Virus record (IMG/VR): IMGVR_UViG_2778261087_000007
DNA length: 36,849 nucleotides
DNA from: a virus
Taxonomy: Duplodnaviria > Heunggongvirae > Uroviricota > Caudoviricetes
Strand: one strand, 5' to 3'
Positions within the stretch are counted from its first letter, which is position 1. Every line of letters begins with the position of its first letter. This document shows, piece after piece, positions 1,516 through 31,629 of the stretch. The notes below the pieces were generated by a model. It made no database searches and had not been told where the DNA came from. It was given only the letters and a program-made list of their open reading frames with translations. Both the position numbers and the translations under genes were made by a program.

Positions 1516-1956
1516 ATGTCTATAGGGTGCCTTATCGACCTTAACCCTGGCAACCGATTGACGGGGAATTTGACTTCCCCGTCGCGGTTCCTTACTGTGT
1601 AGACTTACACTGTAAGAATGCCGCAATTTCCGTGCCTGCAAACCTGAATCGCAACTCACAAGGTGATGTGTGGAGGATCCAGATTATCGCTACTGTGGTT
1701 AAACACAGCAGCAAGGTTTTTAACGGAATTTGCGTCATAGCGCTTGCTCCTTTGCTGGAGAGGCGCTAACCTTCTACTTGCGAAGGTAAGAAGTGTTAGG
1801 GCCTCGGTTAAACAGAAAATGTTTTCCGGGGCCTTTCCACATCCGGCCTTCGGGCTTACCCTCCGACCATCAGCCGAAAGGCACCCGCAGCGATTCTAGC
1901 CTGATCATCTCTTCTGTTTCAATTGAATAACCTTATCCAGTTGAACCTTTTCTGCC

Positions 1957-2162
1957 GATCTTTATGATGCGATCGTCGCCCTGTTGTGATCCTTTTTTCA
2001 GTTTTATTTTACCCGTTAATTTTGCGCAGGCCGCGCCGTGTCTGTCTTCTTTGTCTGATGGTTGTTTGATGCGATCCCTTCGTGATCGTTTTTCGTCTCA
2101 CGTAAAGTATGAAAACTCTTTTAATATCATGCGGTTTTATTGCTCCAGCCATTTGTGCGATC
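1957..2162. promoter_or_regulatory. GATC-dense repeat block (6 GATC in about 200 bp; recurring T-rich ..TGCGATC.. motif)
   Basis: GATC at 1957, 1971, 1988, 2073, 2084, 2159; motif t(g/t)tgcgatc occurs three times; non-coding region. Confidence 0.3.
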
Positions 2163-2474
2163 GAAAAAATATCTCTTAAAATTGCAAAAAATTTCAAAGT
2201 GTGAAATTTCAGAACTTCGCTTTTCCCCCAGTTACTGCGCTGGCTGGCGGTCATTTTTGCACGACAGAAAACTGAAAAAGCGTTTCAACACAAAACCCGC
2301 GGGTTGGAGGGGGTAGCGCGGTTTACGTGACGTGACACTTTACGTCATGTCTGGCTGGTTATGCGCAAAATTGCCGCCTCAGTGAGGCGCTGTCGTAATG
2401 ATTTGATGAAAGGAGGGGTAACGCATGGGCATGGCTCATGCGTTATGTAACGCGTGTTTTACGTGGGATTTATG

Positions 2475-4214
2475 TCAGGCGATAAGGTCGCGGTATTTTT
2501 CCCGCAGGGAGGATGACTGTCTGGCATCACCGGTAAATTCACCACTGTTGGTGGGTGTGCCTGTGCCAGGATGTGCGTGTGTGGCAGCATGTGTTGCCAG
2601 TTGTTCAATGAGATCCAGAATATCAACGAACAACGTCATCAGGTTCAGGCTGTCGCCACCCTGTGAACCATTTCGGCCTATAAACAGGGTCGGCGCAGAG
2701 AGGGAAAGACCACCACTGGCGGTGGTGGTCTGTGTACCGCTGATGTTCTCTGTGATATTCCCGCTTACTGTGCTGTTAACATTACCGCCGATGGTTTCCT
2801 GCCTGTCAGCACTGATGCGGCGTATCTCTGCCTGTAATTCCGCAATAAGGCTGTTTGCTTTCATCCTGATATCACCGGTGGCCACAATACCGTAATCACC
2901 ATCAGAACCATGGACGATCTGCCCTGCCATCAGTGAACTCGTCCCGAGTACCGTGGTACTGTCTGTGGCCTGTACGGTTGTTGTGCGGGTTGTCGTCCGG
3001 CGGCTTTCCTGGTCGCTGGTTATGATTCTGTGTGCAGATTCTTCCCTGATTTTCTGGTCCGTTTCCCGGTGCCATGTGCCGTCACGGGTAACCCTCTGAA
3101 ATACTTCTGCACGCTGTTGCTGTAGCTGCTCGCCAGGCTGGATATCAGGAAGATTCAGTCCGGATGGGAGTATCTGCCTTATTACCGGTTTATCTGGCCG
3201 TCCTTCGATATGCGCGATTTCCACTATCGTTCCGGCTTCCGGATAAGAAAAACAACCGGCCTCATTTCCGGCCATGGGTACCGGAAGCGGCACGGCAGGA
3301 TATACAGGCGTGTTGTTGCTATCGTTGCCGTTTTCGTCCAGTAACTGCAGGTCAACAGCATAACGTGGGCGAAAACTGTCTGCCACATCGCCAAGCGTCG
3401 TGGATTCTGTTGGCGAGATAACGCGGGCCAGTCTTGGGCGTAATGTTCCGTCAGCCAGCTCCGGAAACTGCGATTCTGTCTGACGGCGCAGAGGTGAGCT
3501 GGATACGACAGAACCATCCTGGCGAAACCTGTCCCATGTCAGTGTCATGGTTTCATTATGAATGGCCACACGCGTGATCCGTCCTGCAGGAAGGTTAACG
3601 CCGGGGCGCAGAGTCTCTATCAACATGATATCCATACTGTTGCCGGCGCTGTGCCCCAGTGCATATTCATCAGGAATTTCCGGGATGGTCAGCGATGCAA
3701 AGCGTGAGTCACTGGCGCTGCCAACGAATACAGAACCATCCGGCATGGGATGCCAGACGTAATCCTGAATGCTGAATATCCTGCCAAGATGATCAAGCAG
3801 GCGGGTACCGCTTCCGCTGTGAGTGACGCAGGGTACTGGTGTGGATACATAGGCAGATGACGCGGTAATAAACACGATACCGCTCTTTTTTCCGAGATCA
3901 TCAAGAACATCACGCAGAGTCGGGTGCTGGATGACACACGGAAAACTGAAATCCAGTACCGCGGCAGCTTCCCTGATGAACAGACGGCGGGCGCCGTTTT
4001 CTGCCGGTTGATCGCGCTCAACGTAACCTGAGAAATAACGCCAGGCTTGGCCATCACGCCCAAAATCAATCTGAATCATGGCACCGGCCAGCGTGCTGCG
4101 CTGATTCGGCAGGGTGACAAAACCTCTTCCTGATGCGTTCAGTGACAGGACCAGACTGATGTCTGTTATTTCTGTCTGTTTACCGTTGACCATGCATCTC
4201 TGAATAATTTTCAT
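2475..4214 (-). CDS. baseplate hub / central spike-like protein (possible gpD-gpV type fusion)
   Basis: 579 aa; C-terminus LATHAATHAHPGTGTPTNSG resembles the His-rich apex of P2 gpV (..HTHKHPGDSGGTTG..); last gene of the tail operon; N-terminal similarity to hub proteins is only a pattern-level impression. Confidence 0.5.
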   Translation of the reverse strand: MKIIQRCMVNGKQTEITDISLVLSLNASGRGFVTLPNQRSTLAGAMIQIDFGRDGQAWRYFSGYVERDQPAENGARRLFIREAAAVLDFSFPCVIQHPTLRDVLDDLGKKSGIVFITASSAYVSTPVPCVTHSGSGTRLLDHLGRIFSIQDYVWHPMPDGSVFVGSASDSRFASLTIPEIPDEYALGHSAGNSMDIMLIETLRPGVNLPAGRITRVAIHNETMTLTWDRFRQDGSVVSSSPLRRQTESQFPELADGTLRPRLARVISPTESTTLGDVADSFRPRYAVDLQLLDENGNDSNNTPVYPAVPLPVPMAGNEAGCFSYPEAGTIVEIAHIEGRPDKPVIRQILPSGLNLPDIQPGEQLQQQRAEVFQRVTRDGTWHRETDQKIREESAHRIITSDQESRRTTTRTTTVQATDSTTVLGTSSLMAGQIVHGSDGDYGIVATGDIRMKANSLIAELQAEIRRISADRQETIGGNVNSTVSGNITENISGTQTTTASGGLSLSAPTLFIGRNGSQGGDSLNLMTLFVDILDLIEQLATHAATHAHPGTGTPTNSGEFTGDARQSSSLREKYRDLIA

Positions 4215-4786
4215 TATTCACCATCCTTCACGCTGCCAACACCTGTTTTATCCAGCCATCCTCCCAGCGTATTATTCACCGCTCCCCAGAATGCGTCCTG
4301 AGTATTGATTTGTTCGTTGTCAGACGTTGAACTGGTTCCTGTCTGTGTCTGCTGGTTAACCCTGGTTTTCTGTTCGCTGCTGCGGGCCTCTTTTTTCTCA
4401 GGTACGCTGAGTTTTTCCCTCAGGGTAAATGAGACCTGCCAGTTCATTTTCCCCTGTTGCTCCGTGACGTCGACACTGCCGGAGAAAACACCCTGTCGCA
4501 TATTCACCGCTCTGGCAGTAGCGTTGGCAATCCTGTAGCATTTTTTATCTCCTCCATTGCCTGTGGCTTCGGCCAGTTGAAAAAGGCGGGTCAGTATTTT
4601 TTCATCGTTGAAATCAACAATGCCCGTAACCTTCATTTCTTTCGCTTTGCAGCCTTTCTGGGCGCTGCTGGTACTGGTTGACTGACCTGACATATCCTTA
4701 TCCGGCAGGCGCAGACTGACGCTGACAGTGATATTGCGTAACAGGATCGCTTCTCCGTCCAGCGCCAGCACGATGATTTGTGTCAT
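4214..4786 (-). CDS. hypothetical tail-operon protein (possible baseplate or tube-initiator component)
   Basis: 190-aa ORF, ATG start; 1-nt overlap with the downstream spike gene and ATGA overlap with the upstream gene. Confidence 0.45.
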   Translation of the reverse strand: MTQIIVLALDGEAILLRNITVSVSLRLPDKDMSGQSTSTSSAQKGCKAKEMKVTGIVDFNDEKILTRLFQLAEATGNGGDKKCYRIANATARAVNMRQGVFSGSVDVTEQQGKMNWQVSFTLREKLSVPEKKEARSSEQKTRVNQQTQTGTSSTSDNEQINTQDAFWGAVNNTLGGWLDKTGVGSVKDGE

Positions 4787-5487
4787 TTCAGGGCACCTCT
4801 CAGCGCGGATAAATCCTCACCTGCAAAGAGCATAATAGTGGTCAGCACCCGGTCAGGGTGAGGAATGTTTTTTTTCATCATGATTGCGGCCTGCCTGGTA
4901 TCACCGGAAAAACAGAAACTCCATACCTGGCATGCCCTGTTTTGCGATTCCTGCTTTTCTCCGGTTAATCTGTCCATCAGGTTCTGGCGATCTTTTCTGA
5001 ACTGTGCCAGCGCCTGATCCAGCCCGGAAAAGGACAGCGGAGGAGGGGAAACGGCTGTGCTGATCAATTCAGTCTGTGCCAGACTCCTGGCTGTGCTGAG
5101 TGACAGGGTGGTGCTTTCCGGAAGTGTTGCCGCTACTTTTGCCGGGATCTGCATTTTGCTGACTGCCAGCGATAACTGGCTGGCGATCAGCCTGTTCATT
5201 CGCTTGATTTCCGGCAAAGGGAATACGTCGGCAAAACGTTTTGTCAGTGCAAGAAATTCTGAAGCTGAAGTGGCACTGAGCATCATTAGTACCATGTCGC
5301 AATCCCGGCTGCCCTCCAGTCTGTGCAGAATGGCATCAATGGCATTTTCCGGGCTGAGGTAAGCCCCTGAACGGGTGACGTTTCCCACACCTTCCGACCA
5401 TGGATGGAGACAAAGTTGTGAGCAGTTGATATTCATTGCAGCAGGCTTAAGAAGACTGCTTTTCCATTCCGCTGGCTGCATATTCAT
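4783..5487 (-). CDS. hypothetical protein, unknown function
   Basis: ORF 4783-5541 begins with TTG in the track; first in-frame ATGs at 5487, 5481 and 5436; no recognisable motif. Confidence 0.4.
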   Translation of the reverse strand: MNMQPAEWKSSLLKPAAMNINCSQLCLHPWSEGVGNVTRSGAYLSPENAIDAILHRLEGSRDCDMVLMMLSATSASEFLALTKRFADVFPLPEIKRMNRLIASQLSLAVSKMQIPAKVAATLPESTTLSLSTARSLAQTELISTAVSPPPLSFSGLDQALAQFRKDRQNLMDRLTGEKQESQNRACQVWSFCFSGDTRQAAIMMKKNIPHPDRVLTTIMLFAGEDLSALRGALK

Positions 5488-5643
5488 ACCATTTATTTCT
5501 GATGTGTTGTTGTTTTTTGATGTAATACACAAATTTAACAAAGTGTATGCAAGGCTGTTTAATATGCCATTCTGTAGTTATATGATCCCGGACGACCATA
5601 AGGGATACTGCACTGCAGTGTCTTCTCCCTTGGAAAACCTTTT

Positions 5644-5676: not shown

Positions 5677-6059
5677 CAGCAACAGGTTCCCTGCTGCGTG
5701 TCGCTGTATTTCCCTTTCCCGAACAACCTTACCGCAAGATACATCAACCGTCTGCGCCAGCGTGGAACTCCCAGCACCGTCATCGCATCCAGAAATATCC
5801 TGTCCGCTTCCGCCTTCGTGCGCAGGGCATTGTCATACAGCCAGTCATGAATAATCGCGGCTTTCGCATAACGACCATGCGGCGGGAACAGTGCCCACAG
5901 AAGCCGGGGCACACTGGCAAGGTCCGTCACATATCCCTCCGGAACATAAATCACATCATCCGGGTTATCCGTCAGCCAGAATTCAAACGGCTCAACCAGC
6001 CGCCAGCGGTAATCATCCAGCATCTCCAGAATGGCCGGTGTGGTGAACTTACTCATCAT
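5676..6059 (-). CDS. DUF1353-like protein
   Basis: Motif YVTDLASVPRLLWALFPP...AAIIHDWLY recalls the DUF1353 family often found next to phage tail-fibre genes; start at MMSKF, overlaps the tfa stop. Confidence 0.5.
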   Translation of the reverse strand: MMSKFTTPAILEMLDDYRWRLVEPFEFWLTDNPDDVIYVPEGYVTDLASVPRLLWALFPPHGRYAKAAIIHDWLYDNALRTKAEADRIFLDAMTVLGVPRWRRRLMYLAVRLFGKGKYSDTQQGTCC

Positions 6060-6660
6060 CACCCTCTGGCCAGCCAACAGGATACGCACGAATATCCGGC
6101 AGTGCGGTCAGCCCTGCCACTTCTTCTTTCATCCGGCGCTGGCGTTCGTGGATTTTAAACCCCTGCATCACCATTGCCGCATTCATCGCAGTATCCAGTT
6201 GTATCAGCTCTTCCGGCGTCAGAGTGACATCCTGATTATCCGCATCCGTCCAGAAAAAATGCTCCGGCAACAGCCCGTTTCCTGCCACCGCAACAACAGG
6301 TGTCAGTCTGGACTGTGACGCCTTTCCGGCATCCCAGCGATGACCACTGAATTCAAAAACAAAACTGCTGTTCTCCTGGCTGTCACGCCAGCGACTGATT
6401 TCACCGTATTTCTGATTTCTGGCCTTTTCCAGTATCTCCTCTGTCACCACAAACGGCGTGACTCCACCCCAGGCCCCTGATATCAGTCCTGACCAGAGCC
6501 TTAACCCGAATTCTGTCGGGTCTGAAGCTCTGGCAGTATAAGGTACATATACCCGATGACTGTCATCAGAACGGTCTGCCATGAACACCTCACAGGTAAT
6601 GCTGCCATCTTCATTAAAACGGGCATTGCGGACGTCCGCTTCTGAATTCCTGGTATCCAT
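6049..6660 (-). CDS. tail fibre assembly chaperone (second copy)
   Basis: 203 aa immediately after tail fibre 2; C-terminal region typical of Tfa chaperones. Confidence 0.7.
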   Translation of the reverse strand: MDTRNSEADVRNARFNEDGSITCEVFMADRSDDSHRVYVPYTARASDPTEFGLRLWSGLISGAWGGVTPFVVTEEILEKARNQKYGEISRWRDSQENSSFVFEFSGHRWDAGKASQSRLTPVVAVAGNGLLPEHFFWTDADNQDVTLTPEELIQLDTAMNAAMVMQGFKIHERQRRMKEEVAGLTALPDIRAYPVGWPEGDDE

Positions 6661-8228
6661 TATTTCACCCTCAGAAAAAGCATTTTCTCTTCAGCTTCTG
6701 CATTTCCGCAGGCCATCCAGATTCCTGACTGTACCGGGTCAAGCCGCTCTCCGGCCAGTTCATCTCCGTAACTGACCGCATCCTGAGAAGCACAGAACAG
6801 GTAACTCCCCACTCCACCGGCTACCGGACGACCGGCGAACTGCCACCATGGAGTGGTACCCAGTCCGCTGTAAGCCCTGATGAATGCCTGTCCCATACAG
6901 TTAAGGAAAATCTGACCTGAAACATTCTCATTCGTCGGCACCTGCCACATCAGACCATATGCATAATTCCCCGCGGCACCCGGAACGGGGTGGTCTTCAC
7001 AGGCAAGGTAGTGGTTATATTTCAGCAACGGGAACTGAAGGTCAGAATACATAAAACCATGAGCCAGAATGCCCGTGAATTTTTTCGCAGTCTTTATCCC
7101 GTCTTCCGGGTAAACTCCGCTGGGCCCCATGGGTCCCTGAGGCCCCTGAGGGCCGGTGGCTCCCCGGGCACCGGTATCACCTTTATCGCCTTTCTCACCT
7201 TTTTCTCCCTGAGGCCCGGTATCGCCCCGGTCCCCTTTCTCTCCCTTTTCACCACGGGGGCCCTGTGGGCCGGTCTCCCCCTGCGGTCCCGGCTCTCCCT
7301 GTGGTCCTGGCGTTTTAGCAATCTCCCTGGCCTCCTCCAGTGCCTTCAGCGCCCCCTGCTCATGTTCACCTGCTGTCGTGGCACTGTCTGTTGCCTGGTT
7401 CGCTGACTGGCGTGTTTGTTCCACGGCCTCCTGATATGAGCATGTGGTTATCCTCAAATCTTCCCATACACCGCTTTCTGTTCTGTGAGCTAACGGTGCA
7501 ATATGACTGTGTTCATCGCATTCCGGAATGCTTTCGGCCAGGATCAGGCGATATCGGGTGACGGGGTACCCCAGGACTGTGAAACCATCCACCCATGCCC
7601 GGATACAAAGATAATCAGCACCTTCAGCAATAATGAGGGTTTCATCTTCAGTCTTTACCCTGAAGCCGGCAATATAGGCGGTGCCACCGGTACAGGTCAT
7701 CACATCATCCTTAACGGTGATGCGTCCACAGTCATTAATAAAAACGTGATGTCCGTAAAAATCGTGCAGTGTTTCGGCTCTTGTACTGGCTTCAGCTTTC
7801 AGCCATGAAGTGATATCCAGTTGCCAGCTCTGAGGGGGAACAGTAATATTCGCAGCCCTGGCCATTCCCTTATAAGCCAGGACAAAATTGCGTATTAATG
7901 TTTCGCCCTCCAGTTTTTGCCTTACCGGGGTGGTGATAATACCGCACAGTGTTCTGCCTGGCTGATGTACAAGACAAATACGGTTATATGTAAACTCCCT
8001 GACATCATGACCAATTGTCACGCTGCAGATAATGGCATCCTGATTGAGACGGCTGTATGTCAGCTCTGTGGCAGCAAATGTTATCTGTGAGTCTTCCGGA
8101 TAACTATCCGTCAGCATTGACTCGTTGTCTGATAAAGTAAAAAGAATGGCATCCGGTCTTGCCGGAATATTATCTGCAACGCAGTCAGCCATCCATTTTT
8201 CAAATGATTTGGTCAGCAGGGTGCTCAT
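6660..8228 (-). CDS. tail fibre protein 2 with collagen-like Gly-X-Y tract
   Basis: 522 aa; N-terminal 200 aa homologous to tail fibre 1 ([12 protein letters not shown]...PARPD vs MSTVITRQYEHW...PARPD); about 21 uninterrupted G-X-Y triplets. Confidence 0.8.
7116..7310 (-). repeat. collagen-like G-X-Y coding repeat inside tail fibre 2
   Basis: Residues about 307-371: [64 protein letters not shown]. Confidence 0.85.
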
Positions 8229-8247
8229 TTTTGATTATCTCCGGTTT

Positions 8248-8775
8248 TTATTTTGTTTCCGGTACAGCAGGCCAGTTAATTGCCTCAAAGTTATCCTTAT
8301 TATCAATGTCTGAAATATTCAGAGAATTAAGCTCACGGATATACATCATCCACTGAGTGAGTTTAAGCCTGTCATCGTCACTGATTATTCCAAGACTGAG
8401 CTCTGTCTGCCAGTCACTGGTAATACTCCTGGCTTCTGACAGTAACCTGTTGCGTTGTGTTTCAGCCTGTTGCCGGTAATCAACAGGAACCGGTAATATC
8501 TCACCATCCCTGTAATACCAGCGAGCCTCAATACAGAACCCTTCAGGAAGTTCGTCAACCTCCACAATGGAGAAACCTGCCGGATAGAGACGTGAAGCAT
8601 CCTCCGCCATGGAGTAAATCACTCCGGTGTCCGGATGAATGCACAATTTATATTTCTTCGTGAATTTATTGACAGAATCATAAAAATCCTGACCATCCTC
8701 ACTGCAGAAATACTGGATACCATCACCATAAGGCATGTCTTCAGGGTAATAGCGTGAAACGTTTCGGAGTTCCAT
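8248..8775 (-). CDS. tail fibre assembly chaperone (first copy)
   Basis: Start at MELRNVSRYY (ATG 8775, SD-like AAGGGA upstream); directly downstream of tail fibre 1. Confidence 0.7.
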   Translation of the reverse strand: MELRNVSRYYPEDMPYGDGIQYFCSEDGQDFYDSVNKFTKKYKLCIHPDTGVIYSMAEDASRLYPAGFSIVEVDELPEGFCIEARWYYRDGEILPVPVDYRQQAETQRNRLLSEARSITSDWQTELSLGIISDDDRLKLTQWMMYIRELNSLNISDIDNKDNFEAINWPAVPETK

Positions 8776-8786
8776 AATGTTGTCCC

Positions 8787-10340
8787 TTAACCGGATATGG
8801 TGCGCCATGCACCATTAATATAAATCTGTTTTGCTTTGTAATAGACACCGCCAATATTATCTGCAGAATGTGAGCCAGTTTCCTGAACGTTAATACCAGA
8901 AAGCACACAACCTGCCGGGGCACGGAATGTCCAGGAAATTTCATTACCACCTGGATTGTGAAAGGTTTCGTTTGTGTACTGTTCGTTCTGTACATAGCGG
9001 GCATCAGCTGCAGCCTGCGTCATTCCCGCTGAAATGGTGATATCCTTCGTACCATCAAATGCAACACCATTTATTTTTCGTGCGTTCTGTAATTTTGTGG
9101 CGCTGCCGGCATTACCGGTTGTGTTCTGGTTGCCCTGGGTATTCACACCCGGGAGACTGATATCTCCTGAACCATCAAAACTGACGCCGCCGATTTTCCT
9201 GCTGGTTTTTAATTTTGTAGCCGTACCTGAATTGCCTGATATATCGGTGATTGTAATATCTTCCGACAGTTCCTTACCGTTGACTTTCCTTGTTGACGGA
9301 ACGCGACGTTTTGCCTCATCCATAGCGTTCTTTACGGCTTTGGGAGTGGCGGCACGATCTTCCCTGTCACTGTCTGTATCACTGCAATATTGCGCAAATC
9401 CCTTTTCGTCCAGCGTGGCGTCAGGGTGATTGCGTGAGCGCACGTGGGCTGCCAGTGCATCGCTGTTTTCTTCATCAGGTGTCTGTGGACGGACATCCTC
9501 AACATGACCGGCAGATAATACTGCCAGTGGTGCAACATAATGTCTGAATCCGTTATTATCGGTGTACTCTTCAGTTACCAGGCGTGTATTCGTATTCCCG
9601 GCGTCTGGTTGTCTGGCAGTAAATACAAATACCGTTTTCCAGCAGCCTGATACATGTCCCTGCCAACTGGCATCAATCAGAATGATGTCATTTTCAGAGG
9701 CGGTAAGTGTGAAGGGCTCCGTTAACTGAACACGCAGGCCACCGATATAAGCCACACCGGCACTGATGGTAGCTGTGCTGTTAATGGCATCGTAACTGAC
9801 ATGCAGGCTGTTACCCAGACATGCGGCATCACCATAGTAATCAAAGGCCAGCAGACGACGCGATTCATCCATTCCTGTCAGTCTGGCAGTAAAATCAATC
9901 TGCCAGACGTCAGCGGTGACGTTTACCTGCATGGCTTCGGCTGCCCCTTCGAATTCCATGGCGAATGTGCGAATCAGGTTATTGCCCTGAATGCCATTGG
10001 CGGTCCTGATTTTCTGCTGTAGTGGTGTATGGGCAATCATACACAGTACATGGCTTTCTTCGTGATACAGCCCAATCCAGTTATATTCAAAATCACCTGC
10101 GGTGGTGTCCAGAATCACGGAAAATGCAACCGTATCAGGTTCAAGCATGCCGAACTGTGTTACCGGAACGCGGCAGACAATATATTTTTCATCCGGCAGT
10201 TCTTCATCCACCGATATCGGTGCACTGATATCCATATCCGGAATGCAGGCAAAGATAAAAGTGTCCGGTCTGGCCGGTTCGTTGCTGATAAGCTGGTTTG
10301 CACACCAGTGCTCATATTGTCGCGTAATTACCGTGCTCAT
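8787..10340 (-). CDS. tail fibre protein 1 (P2 gpH-like)
   Basis: 517 aa; contains HPDATLDEKGF...AATPKAVKNAMDEA matching the P2 gpH motif RHPDASLTAKGF...AATPKAVK; two ATKL..R.I.GV.FDG fibre repeats. Confidence 0.85.
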   Translation of the reverse strand: MSTVITRQYEHWCANQLISNEPARPDTFIFACIPDMDISAPISVDEELPDEKYIVCRVPVTQFGMLEPDTVAFSVILDTTAGDFEYNWIGLYHEESHVLCMIAHTPLQQKIRTANGIQGNNLIRTFAMEFEGAAEAMQVNVTADVWQIDFTARLTGMDESRRLLAFDYYGDAACLGNSLHVSYDAINSTATISAGVAYIGGLRVQLTEPFTLTASENDIILIDASWQGHVSGCWKTVFVFTARQPDAGNTNTRLVTEEYTDNNGFRHYVAPLAVLSAGHVEDVRPQTPDEENSDALAAHVRSRNHPDATLDEKGFAQYCSDTDSDREDRAATPKAVKNAMDEAKRRVPSTRKVNGKELSEDITITDISGNSGTATKLKTSRKIGGVSFDGSGDISLPGVNTQGNQNTTGNAGSATKLQNARKINGVAFDGTKDITISAGMTQAAADARYVQNEQYTNETFHNPGGNEISWTFRAPAGCVLSGINVQETGSHSADNIGGVYYKAKQIYINGAWRTISG

Positions 10341-22023: not shown

Positions 22024-22208
22024 AGGAAATTTATTCACTGATAAAACCGTACTGCGGGTATTAGATGAATAATCCTGTGCCGGCGTCATCCTGTTTATTT
22101 CTGCTGTATTCGGATAAACCGGTATATCCGAAAATAACTGAATTCTGCTGTTCGTCTTCAGAAAGACCTTTTTCGAAAATGGTCGAAGTTTATTTATACG
22201 GAGGAGTT
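22024..22208. promoter_or_regulatory. divergent late-promoter region between scaffold and terminase operons
   Basis: 185-bp AT-rich spacer between divergent O and P starts; no TGT-N12-ACA Ogr box found by eye. Confidence 0.35.
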
Positions 22209-23987
22209 ATGGCTTATTCTGATGAAGTGATAGCTGCTGCCCGTGCGCTGTATCTGAAACGGTATACGCCGAAAGAAATACAAAAAAAGCTGGGGCTTAA
22301 CAGTCCGCGTATTGTTTATTACTGGGCAACAAAATATGAGTGGTATGCGCAGCTCAGTACCGAAGGTGTGGAGGAGGTGATCGCCCGTCGTGTGATGACG
22401 CTGACAGAGCGTGAACATAAAAGTCAGGAAGAGCGGGATGAACTTGATCGTCTTATCGGGCACCATGTGAAACTGATGTCTGCCAGACACAGACATACAG
22501 AACGAATGGCAGAAATTGAACATATGTCTGTTGAGATGGCAGACAGTTCGCCGGTATCCCGTGGTAACAGTGAAAGCGGTAAAAAAGAACGCCGACGTAA
22601 GGCTAATGATATTTCCGGACTGACGGCAGAGAGTTTTGAACCGTTTACTAAAAAACTGTTCGCTTATCAGTTACACCTTCGGAAAAACAAAATTCGCCGT
22701 GTACGTAATTTGCTTAAATCCCGTCAGATTGGTGCAACCTTTTATTTTGCCTTTGAAGCTTTCGAAGATGCTGTATTAACTGGCGACACTCAGATATTTC
22801 TGTCCGCTTCAAAACGTCAGGCGGAAGTCTTTCGTACCTATATTGTTAAAATTGCACAGCAAGAATTTGGGATCGCAATTAAGGGTAATCCTGTCAGGTT
22901 AAGTAATATGGCTGAGCTGTATTTTCTGGCAACGAACAGTAACACCGCACAGTCAAACAGTGGTCACGTGTACATTGATGAATATCTGTGGATCCCCGGC
23001 TTTGAACGTCTTAATACGGTTGCTTCCGGTATGGCCACACACTCGCGGTGGCGTCTGACCTATTTTTCTACACCGTCCGGTAAAACACACCAGGGATACG
23101 CGTTCTGGTCCGGTGATGAATGGCGACGCGGAGATCCGAAGCGTAAACAGGTTGAATTCCCGTCCTTTGATGAGCTGCGTGACGGTGGGCGCGAATGTCC
23201 TGACGGGCAGTGGCGTTACGTGGTGACGCTGGAAGATGCCATTGCCGGTGGATTTAACCTTGCCGATATCAACGAACTGCGCGAACGATACAGTGAGACC
23301 GCGTTCAGGATGTTGTTTATGTGCCAGTTCGTGGACGACAAGGAGAGCATTTTCCGTTTTGAAGATCTGGAGCGTTGTGGTGTTGACCCCCGAATATGGG
23401 AGGACTTCAATCCTGATGAACCGGCGCCGTTCGGTAATCGTGAGGTCTGGGGCGGTTTTGACCCGGCGAGAGGGGGGGATAATGCCACGTTTGTGGTGGT
23501 GGCACCGCCACTGGTCGAAGGGGAACGCTTTCGTGTACTGGAAAAACATCACTGGCGCAGCATGTCATTTCAGTATATGGCTGAACGTATCCGCGCCATT
23601 AAATCCCGCTATAACATGACCTTTATCGGGATAGATGTCACCGGGCTCGGGTATGGCGTTTATGAACTTGTTCAGGGATTTGCCCGCCGTGAAACCGTGG
23701 CCATTCATTACAGCGTTGAGAGTAAAAATCGTCTGGTGATGAAAATGCTGGATGTGGTGGATGCTCGGCGCATCGAATGGGATGAAGAGGCAAAGGATAT
23801 TCCGGCTTCATTCATGGCCATTCGCCAGGAAACCACAGGCAGTGGCAACAAAGTTACCTTTACGGCAGAACGTAGTGAGGAAACCGGCCATGCGGATGTG
23901 TTTTTCGCTATTGCCCATGCGCTCAGTAATGAGCCGCTGAATTACAAAAATAAACGCAAATCAACGTGGGTTTTTGCTGATGACTAA
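22209..23987 (+). CDS. terminase ATPase (large) subunit, gpP-like
   Basis: 592 aa from ATG at 22209 preceded by GGAGGAG; P2 gpP is about 590 aa; divergent from the scaffold gene as in P2. Confidence 0.85.
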   Translation: MAYSDEVIAAARALYLKRYTPKEIQKKLGLNSPRIVYYWATKYEWYAQLSTEGVEEVIARRVMTLTEREHKSQEERDELDRLIGHHVKLMSARHRHTERMAEIEHMSVEMADSSPVSRGNSESGKKERRRKANDISGLTAESFEPFTKKLFAYQLHLRKNKIRRVRNLLKSRQIGATFYFAFEAFEDAVLTGDTQIFLSASKRQAEVFRTYIVKIAQQEFGIAIKGNPVRLSNMAELYFLATNSNTAQSNSGHVYIDEYLWIPGFERLNTVASGMATHSRWRLTYFSTPSGKTHQGYAFWSGDEWRRGDPKRKQVEFPSFDELRDGGRECPDGQWRYVVTLEDAIAGGFNLADINELRERYSETAFRMLFMCQFVDDKESIFRFEDLERCGVDPRIWEDFNPDEPAPFGNREVWGGFDPARGGDNATFVVVAPPLVEGERFRVLEKHHWRSMSFQYMAERIRAIKSRYNMTFIGIDVTGLGYGVYELVQGFARRETVAIHYSVESKNRLVMKMLDVVDARRIEWDEEAKDIPASFMAIRQETTGSGNKVTFTAERSEETGHADVFFAIAHALSNEPLNYKNKRKSTWVFADD

Positions 23988-30581: not shown

Positions 30582-30631
30582 AAGCGGTTTTTTTGTGTGT
30601 GCATGGCGATTACTCAGTCCGGTAGCAGTTC
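30582..30631. repeat. direct repeat copy A (50 bp) spanning the dam stop
   Basis: aagcggtttttttgtgtgtgcatggcgattactcagtccggtagcagttc; identical to copy B except T7 versus T5. Confidence 0.85.
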
Positions 30632-31629
30632 ACGGAGTACGGCATCAGCGGTTGTTCTGCGGTGGAAGAGGTAAACATCGCGCTGTAAGTTGTATCTCCC
30701 GTCACCGTGCCGCAGTCCGGACAGTAGCCGCCGCCATGGCGACCACAGGCGTCGCACTGTCTCAGGGTGGCGATAACCTCCGGTGCTGGTTTTCGGGTTT
30801 TTGCGCCAACGCTTCGCGGTGCCTGGATGCGGTTCATCCGGTAGCCCTGATAAATGCGCCGTGCTTCCGGTGTGTCGGAGCCGGAAATGGTTATGCTGGT
30901 CATTCCACCTGTTTCCTGTGAAAGACGGTCAAGCGCTGCTCTCAGGCGAACGTGTTCGTCCTTCGTGAAGGGTTTTTCGTAGGCGGTGAAATTGTCCCAG
31001 CCACTGAATGACAGGTAAGGGGGATCGCAGTACACGCAAAGCGTACTACCTATGCTGAACAGGTGACTGGCAGTGTTCAGCGTTTTCTGAAAATCGCCAT
31101 GAACAAGCAGTGTTCTGGTGCTGTTTGCCTTGTCTGCAAATGCGCGGATTTCCCGTTCAGGGAAGTAGGGAGCCCGGTAGCCACCGAATGGGACATTAAA
31201 ATCCCCTTTTTCATTCACCCGGTACAGGCCATTAAAGCAGTGCCGGTTGAGGTATAAAAACATGGCGGCCAGCCGTAATTCGCGACGGTCGCTTATTCCC
31301 GTGCTCAGGAATGCATGATTCTCTGCATTAAAGGTGTTACGGATAGCGAGATAGTCAGTCCTGTTATTGTGTTCCAGGAACAGGTCTTTTGCTTCGTTGA
31401 TCAGACAGTCAGTGTTGTCCCGTGCTGCCCGACAGAAATTAATCAGTGCACCATTGGAATCACCCAGGATGTATCGGCTGTAACTGGTGTTCATGAATAC
31501 CGATGCGCCACCCACGAACGGCTCAACCAGGCAGTCCGCTTCTGGCAGATGCGCCTTCAGTGTGTTCATGATGCGGCTTTTCCCGCCCACCCATTTCAGC
31601 GGTGTGCCGGATAACAGTTCTTTGCTCAT
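30610..31629 (-). CDS. dam: DNA adenine methyltransferase (Dam family) with Cys-rich C-terminal extension
   Basis: 339 aa; N-terminal PLKWVGGK, FVGGASVF and catalytic DPPY motifs; C-terminal CDACGRHGGGYCPDCG zinc-ribbon-like segment; good SD AAGAGG. Confidence 0.85.
   Translation of the reverse strand: MSKELLSGTPLKWVGGKSRIMNTLKAHLPEADCLVEPFVGGASVFMNTSYSRYILGDSNGALINFCRAARDNTDCLINEAKDLFLEHNNRTDYLAIRNTFNAENHAFLSTGISDRRELRLAAMFLYLNRHCFNGLYRVNEKGDFNVPFGGYRAPYFPEREIRAFADKANSTRTLLVHGDFQKTLNTASHLFSIGSTLCVYCDPPYLSFSGWDNFTAYEKPFTKDEHVRLRAALDRLSQETGGMTSITISGSDTPEARRIYQGYRMNRIQAPRSVGAKTRKPAPEVIATLRQCDACGRHGGGYCPDCGTVTGDTTYSAMFTSSTAEQPLMPYSVNCYRTE

Follow-up and report, generated by a model that had tools for sequence, protein, structure and literature searches.

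Sternberg and Coulby reportedly found that cleavage of pac, the packaging site of phage P1, is regulated by Dam methylation. A passage of PMC10028697 describes P1 pac as a 161-bp sequence with seven GATC-containing hexamers, at which adenine methylation controls cleavage. Packaging in P1 is of the headful (pac) type and uses a PacA/PacB enzyme, and the sites in P1 pac share the hexamer TGATCA/G, lie close to the cut on both sides and fall within 161 bp inside a gene. Among other GATC-based systems, the pap switch has its GATC boxes 102 bp apart, and the replication origin oriC combines a high density of GATC with a set of 13-mers. Fully methylated DNA is a poor substrate for SeqA. In P2, the origin of replication lies inside the gene for the gpA-type initiator.

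The DNA studied here belongs to an HP1-like phage, and several members of this group have annotated genome ends. The HP1 record begins with cosL, and its orf35 stops 192 bp short of the right cohesive end; attP and int come next, within 700 bp. In phiO18P, the annotated 16-nt cohesive end lies 200 bp past the orf35 homologue, and the ESSI-2 record has a 15-nt terminal redundancy, CTACACCGCACCCGC, at the aligned position. A Dam gene of HP1 is cited in a passage of PMC7556043. Our literature search returned no description of GATC arrays beside cos in HP1/P2-group phages, and the literature searched on HP1-group cos regions described no role for the GATCs there.

Here we analysed a 36,849-nt stretch of Caudoviricetes DNA (IMG/VR record IMGVR_UViG_2778261087_000007), called the window below, in which an initial annotation had singled out six clustered GATC sites as a possible methylation-sensitive regulatory or replication-associated element. 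Our leading reading, to which we give slightly less than an even chance, is that the six GATCs form a conserved Dam-site array flanking an HP1-like cos on its left-end side, that the array is sensed through Dam and SeqA, and that it gates the use of cos in the manner of P1 pac.

Genomic context of the GATC cluster

The first 1,293 bases of the window are serS, and homology with E. coli K-12 ends at 1335; everything beyond that position is therefore prophage, with the host–prophage junction at 1335/1336, 42 bp past the serS stop codon. The cluster (1957–2162) had been described as adjacent to a prophage carrying its own dam gene. Such a gene is present, but the cluster lies within the same prophage rather than next to it. 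The prophage is HP1-like (Peduoviridae), combining an HP1-type tail module with head and terminase genes of the P2 type; besides a Cox-like protein and a repressor, it encodes a nicking replication protein of the gpA type, and its integrase gene lies at the opposite end of the window.

The last late gene before cos (2475–4214, minus strand) encodes the baseplate homologue of HP1 orf35 (PHROG 2258, E = 6e-213), whose product is 34–48% identical to the HP1, phiO18P, ESSI-2 and SI7 proteins. In all, homologues of orf35 are present on more than 509 viral contigs. Past this last tail gene, an inverted repeat at 2419–2445 (minus strand) forms a hairpin that is a candidate late-operon terminator, and an equivalent hairpin, followed by a T-run, is present in homologues. 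The genome with the predicted cos also encodes both terminase subunits, namely a P2-type small subunit of the gpM family (19394–20101, minus strand; Pfam Phage_term_smal, E = 4e-39) and the large subunit (22065–23987, plus strand). The methylase gene, at 30610–31629 on the minus strand, encodes a Dam-family (D12 class) N6-adenine DNA methyltransferase (Pfam PF02086, E = 7e-51) that is 43–51% identical to annotated phage Dam proteins, and we infer that it is specific for GATC.

Between the predicted cos and the host junction, and outside the array, the prophage carries a hok/sok-type toxin–antitoxin cassette as cargo (1592–1922, minus strand; Pfam HOK_GEF). It includes a Hok ORF (1592–1738, minus strand), an Rfam sok match at 1733–1886 that scores 43.7 bits, under the gathering score of 59, and a promoter-like site at 1893–1922. 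Elsewhere in the prophage, two successive pairs of tail-fibre and tail-fibre-assembly genes occupy 6660–10340 on the minus strand (8787–10340 with 8248–8808, and 6660–8228 with 6049–6660), which suggests a duplicated or alternative host-range module.

The six GATC sites of the cluster are at 1957–1960, 1971–1974, 1988–1991, 2073–2076, 2084–2087 and 2159–2162. A further GATC to their left, at 1903, falls in the spacer of the hok promoter-like site and is not kept in the related hok cassette of contig L011. The excess originally claimed for the interval 1957–2162, six sites against an expectation below one, was confirmed, although the expected number depends on the model: base composition predicts 0.60 sites, and a first-order Markov model fitted locally predicts 1.24. 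A window-wide density check had been proposed at the same time; run as a scan statistic over the whole window, it gave P = 0.03 for at least six sites in 206 bp and P = 0.011 for at least seven sites in 263 bp. The mean spacing of GATC in the window is 1 per 341 bp, and the total of 108 sites is below the 145 ± 12 expected from dinucleotide-preserving shuffles, so the cluster stands out against a background of GATC avoidance. Between 1950 and 2299, GATC is the most over-represented tetramer under the first-order Markov model (6 found versus 1.08 expected), at a P value (9e-4) that alone would fail correction for 256 tetramers. Two further GATC-dense stretches occur in the window, one inside serS (544–1068, eight sites in 525 bp) and one inside a tail-region ORF on the minus strand (4989–5188 within 4783–5541, five sites in 200 bp). 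From the window alone, the cluster is moderately significant, and we regard the comparative evidence as the decisive case against chance.

A predicted cos site beside the cluster

Homology and synteny place a predicted cos at 2299–2316, where the minus strand reads CTACCCCCTCCAACCCGC, the predicted cohesive-end sequence (cosN). Across this site the window minus strand aligns as ACGTAAACCGCG, CTACCCCCTCCAACCCGC and GGGTTTTGTG in succession, and cosN aligns with the 16-nt cos of phiO18P, with HP1 cosL, with the 15-nt redundancy of ESSI-2 and with adapter junctions in ev129 and ev239. The virion assemblies of the last two phages break at the cos sequence with a sequencing adapter attached, evidently an artefact of transposase-tagmented (Nextera-type) libraries that marks physical DNA ends. 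At the record ends of L206 (NC_049394.1) and L127 (NC_049392.1), the Nextera adapter CTGTCTCTTATACACATCT and its complement are found at the cos junction, an assembly artefact in deposited genomes.

The position of the predicted cos, ~200 bp downstream of the orf35-type gene and between that gene and attP/int on the circular map, is accompanied by the cos-region signature seen when the window minus strand was aligned with HP1, phiO18P, K139 and ESSI-2: a C-rich 15–16-nt cohesive end, ACG(T/G)AAA repeats and a TTTCAG-type motif. TTTACGT is directly repeated at 2322–2328 and 2339–2345 (plus strand; three copies in relatives), on the side of cosN that faces the tail genes. These repeats are candidate terminase recognition elements, and their counterpart ACG(T/G)AAA flanks cos in HP1, K139 and phiO18P. 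An inverted distal copy, ACGTAAA at 2100–2106 (plus strand), lies inside the GATC array and is invariant across homologues. In addition, the 12-mer TTTTTCAGTTTT (1994–2005, plus strand), invariant in 29 homologues, forms a perfect inverted pair with AAAACTGAAAAA (2268–2279, plus strand), and the pair brackets most of the array. The GATC sites are interleaved with motifs that also flank cosN (ACGTAAA and TTTTTCAGTTTT) and, given the predicted cos, the six of them lie 137–342 bp inside one genome end, on one side only.

A conserved non-coding block with changing neighbours

Sequence comparison delimited a conserved non-coding block at 1957–2347 that comprises the cos region and its left-end flank. 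The block was found in 51 of 5,426 complete E. coli genomes at 84–90% identity, as well as in E. albertii and in 24 IMG/VR contigs, and it always lies directly downstream of an orf35-type baseplate gene. A protein-seeded scan of genome contigs returned nothing, a DNA-pattern scan returned E. albertii only, and the isolated-phage collection held no close copy. At E <= 1, Rfam gave no match in 1957–2347, the only match being the neighbouring sok-like one.

Prophages bearing the block are integrated at different chromosomal places (serS, raiA, flk and topB), and the cargo beside it varies: hok alone; hok with a RuvC-like gene, com and a DNA methylase; or a YafO-family toxin–antitoxin pair with an ATP-dependent nuclease. 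In some relatives the array adjoins attP directly. Because both integration places and cargo vary, the block is best regarded as core phage DNA beside a cargo slot and not as the regulator of any specific neighbour. Related prophages adjoin raiA, flk, topB or hpt, and several integrases and several attachment sites are therefore in use within the group. In relatives, the interval from cos to the attachment site is a hotspot for cargo (L008, 1–2402; L002, 4435–5922; L127, 27190–28293; L206, 29934–30551), where we observed the YafO-family pair with the ATP-dependent nuclease, the RuvC-like gene with Com and DNA methylase, and an O-acetyltransferase or a serine acetyltransferase.

These changing surroundings bear on the possibility that the array is a Dam-sensitive transcriptional switch, as in pap, agn43, gtr or mom, for the hok/sok cargo or for an unannotated transcript. 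We consider such a switch unlikely. The cluster does adjoin the hok promoter-like site, yet the array is kept whichever neighbour it has, including attP itself, and its position is fixed relative to cosN and not to the cargo. Weak promoter-like matches do occur within the block, but their hexamers are not conserved. Two copies of the decamer TGATGCGATC are separated by exactly 102 bp, as the GATC boxes of pap are; relatives preserve this distance but not the sequence of the boxes, and the Lrp motif is too degenerate to score. No papI- or papB-like divergent flanking genes lie beside the array, and a search of the array region (1957–2300) for an OxyR-like site gave no match; Rfam gave none there either. 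The regulatory role first proposed for the cluster is unsupported on the same grounds: its place is next to the predicted cos and not at a promoter, and relatives with the array have other neighbouring genes or none.

Several specific candidates for a role of the block were examined and rejected. A 31-codon ORF (2110–2205) is alone among the small ORFs in being preserved and stays open in several relatives, but five homologues have lost its ATG and its substitutions are mostly amino-acid-changing; ORFs of 71 and 81 codons are both broken by indels in L008. As for a conserved sigma-70 promoter, the consensus matches at 2168–2197 and 1941–1968 are not kept in homologues. Mu-like mom regulation, prompted by the com and DNA methylase genes near the array in relatives, was rejected since this is an HP1/P2-like phage that has an integrase, and relatives without com still keep the array.

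Conservation of the GATC sites

We aligned 29 distinct homologues; these are mutually related, and their agreement is not fully independent. Within 1983–2220, 47% of the columns vary, rising to 67% of those directly flanking GATC sites, while the 16 columns in the four universally alignable GATCs (1988, 2073, 2084 and 2159) are all invariant (permutation P = 0.001). Of the 29 homologues, 27 retain sites 1957 and 1971, and the six-site array (1957–2162, no strand) is as a whole invariant or nearly so, with varying flanks. A seventh site position, 2212–2215 (no strand), is GATC in 27 of the 29 and GAAC in the window and its closest relative, L030. These patterns indicate that the GATC tetranucleotide itself is under selection.

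The initial annotation had also stressed a recurring T-rich TGCGATC motif. The motif is common to three sites (1968, 2070 and 2156), but it is not conserved: the bases before GATC vary freely, and all four occur before the site at 2159 among the homologues. The array is conserved as bare GATC, not in its extended TGCGATC context.

It is very unlikely that the cluster has no function and is a chance or hitch-hiking feature of a conserved block. Such an origin would agree with the moderate significance in the window (P about 0.03) and with the relatedness of the homologues, but it leaves unexplained why GATC columns are invariant amid 47–67% variable ones and why, as described next, clades that have diverged too far to align still show arrays at matching offsets.

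GATC groups and Dam in wider relatives

In wider clades, the orf35 homologue is only 44–48% identical and the flanks barely align, but the offsets of GATC from the cos core are similar or identical. They are 104, 157, 232, 243, 328, 345 and 358 in the window clade; 103, 145, 232, 243, 329 and 340 in L060; 30, 157, 168 and 233 in the ESSI-2-like clade; 30, 204, 225 and 355 in the SI7-like clade; about 30, 213, 223, 290 and 311 in K139; 93, 111 and 121 in phiO18P; and 112 and 163 in HP1. At least one pair of GATCs 10–11 or 21 bp apart is found in every enteric, Vibrio and Aeromonas clade, and in three clades such pairs adjoin the distal ACG(T/G)AAA motif.

A D12-class Dam gene and a GATC group occur together in the window phage, ESSI-2, ev129, SI7, SW3, SW5, the IMG/VR contig L152 and, going by its cited Dam gene, HP1; ev015 and ev040 also have the D12 Dam gene. 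K139 and phiO18P have GATC groups, with a methylase that is unrecognizable in the former and of another class in the latter. Two types of Dam-less phage keep the cos architecture. The first, ev239-type phages, which include an E. coli prophage, have a primase-type replication module; ev239 itself has about two GATCs within roughly 340 bp after cos, compared to ~1 expected and so without enrichment, and its close relative L107 has none in about 480 bp. The second, Yersinia phage YenM_324, has a gpA-type module and no GATC in 520 bp. The idea that terminases of Dam-less phages form a separate group was rejected, as the two Dam-less lineages are distinct and, judged by terminase identity, not mutually close. 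When the comparison was enlarged with IMG/VR contigs, the Dam gene was reached in only 1 of 80 loci (L152). Co-occurrence of GATC arrays at cos with phage Dam, and their absence from Dam-less relatives, is supported in this small sample, a handful of lineages counted without phylogenetic correction. The Dam-linked element of the initial annotation holds to this extent, with GATC under selection and its arrays following phage Dam.

The Dam-less phages also bear on a replication role, that is, an oriC-like origin or control site sequestered by SeqA. Although GATC density in the cluster is comparable to that of oriC and several sites consist of GATC followed by a T-rich run, recalling the oriC 13-mers, Dam-less relatives with either replication module keep the block and lack the array, and the phage has its own gpA-type nicking initiator, for which a P2-like origin would be expected within the initiator gene. 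The region 1957–2300 contains no DnaA-box-like match, and a search with the DnaA box TTATNCACA, one mismatch allowed, gave no match between 1707 and 2359. With the cluster placed beside a predicted cos, we regard the replication-associated element put forward initially as highly improbable.

Satellite-like elements without GATC

Three related loci, L011 (1–3400), L016 (1–11987) and L031, are ~12-kb elements with an integrase, a large primase, an ogr-like gene and a capsid-like gene; they lack terminase and tail genes and may be satellites of phages in this group. Over more than 60 bp their cosN is the same as in the window clade, and the flanking motifs all match, including ACGTAAA at 2100–2106. 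All seven GATC positions are changed, leaving 0 GATC in 560 bp, and none of the three has Dam. The lack of GATC in satellite-like elements with an identical cosN argues that terminase recognition as such does not require it. Its absence from these elements could also reflect relaxed selection.

The same elements weigh on the proposal that the GATCs are simply the cores of binding sites for a protein of the packaging complex, such as the small terminase subunit or an accessory DNA-bending protein of phage or host, with Dam irrelevant. This proposal accounts for the interleaving of GATCs with cos-type motifs, for their fixed offsets from cosN and for the pairs that adjoin the distal ACG(T/G)AAA motif. 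It is nevertheless rather unlikely in our view: only the 4-bp palindrome is conserved while adjacent bases take all four nucleotides, which is atypical of a specific protein site; GATC is missing from relatives and satellite-like elements that share the cos motifs (and, in the satellites, an identical cosN); and presence of the array tracks the Dam gene.

A possible methylation gate on cos

Taken together, the interleaved motifs, fixed offsets and link with Dam support an array that belongs to the cos nucleoprotein region, or is closely linked with it, and that has a functional tie to Dam. Most likely, the array links packaging to the methylation state of the DNA rather than controlling a gene or a replication origin. 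Under such a scheme, its methylation state would report the status of each genome copy, distinguishing freshly replicated (hemimethylated) from fully methylated DNA. SeqA or the terminase complex itself would bind the hemimethylated array and block cos, which we see as the most likely route. Host and phage Dam would together bring about full methylation, which would lift the block, and fully methylated copies would be cut and packaged. We prefer this negative version of the gate because satellite-like elements with the same cosN do without GATC.

The spacing of the sites offers a further, suggestive but not strong, indication. GATC positions show helical phasing with a vector strength of 0.70 at a 10.5-bp period (P about 0.03; the period was fitted and the statistics are marginal), and phasing peaks in other clades fall at 10.65–10.85 bp. 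Phasing of A-tracts, a sign of intrinsic bending that would be expected for a wrapped complex, was not significant (P = 0.44).

Phasing and the 10–21-bp pairs fit the rules of SeqA binding, and this would suit a role after injection, in which SeqA or another GATC reader near the genome end affects circularization, end protection or the early choice between integration and replication. The array does lie between cos and attP/int on the circular map. However, DNA packaged into virions while phage Dam is present should carry full methylation and thus be a poor SeqA substrate, and nothing specific ties the array to attP, with 0.3–3 kb of cargo tolerated between them. We therefore consider a post-injection role quite unlikely and retain the packaging gate as our preferred reading.

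A more far-reaching version of the gate, which we regard as possible but doubtful, would make this locus the first packaging signal of cos type to carry an epigenetic checkpoint: HP1-like phages would have an orphan Dam because a phased GATC array next to cos bars hemimethylated, newly replicated genomes from capsids until methylation is complete, and satellite-like elements with the same cosN would have lost every GATC, thereby escaping the checkpoint and being packaged first. A conserved Dam-site array at a set distance from cos, present with Dam and absent without it, provides a concrete and testable target. If the gate exists, methylation-gated packaging, of which the headful system P1 pac is the single classical case, would extend to P2/HP1-group cos phages. 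The gate would further point to a means by which satellites could outcompete their helper. In practical terms, the array would be a short stretch of DNA that might influence how efficiently cosmid-like vectors derived from HP1/P2-group phages are packaged.

Comparison with known systems

Like the Dam-dependent phase-variation switches (pap with Lrp; agn43, gtr and opvAB with OxyR; and Mu mom), the array consists of conserved non-coding GATCs on a mobile element, and the 102-bp spacing of two identical GATC decamers in the window resembles pap in particular. In contrast to these switches, it has no OxyR-like site, no conserved promoter and no constant regulated gene, and it is positioned by cosN. 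With the SeqA-bound clusters of oriC and the dnaA promoter, it has in common a high GATC density, pairs 10–11, 21 or 31 bp apart and a rough helical phase, features predicted to suit SeqA on hemimethylated DNA; unlike them, it has no DnaA boxes, and origin function is not expected.

The closest structural likeness is to the cos regions of HP1, phiO18P, K139 and ESSI-2, which have the same map position, a C-rich cohesive end, ACG(T/G)AAA and TTTCAG motifs, and groups of GATCs within a few hundred bp of the left end. Compared with these, the window clade has the largest array seen (seven sites, six of them in the window), and the window differs in the insertion of hok/sok cargo between the array and attR.

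P1 pac shares with this locus a GATC cluster in or beside the packaging signal and a phage-encoded Dam, and the proposed logic, in which the methylation state decides whether terminase cuts, would be the same. The differences lie in the machinery and the layout. Here a P2/HP1 cos-type terminase takes the place of PacA/PacB, and the sites of the array have only GATC in common, without a shared hexamer consensus on both sides of the cut; they lie on one side, 137–342 bp from the predicted cut, in non-coding DNA. By analogy, the array may work like pac, yet it stands outside the pac family.
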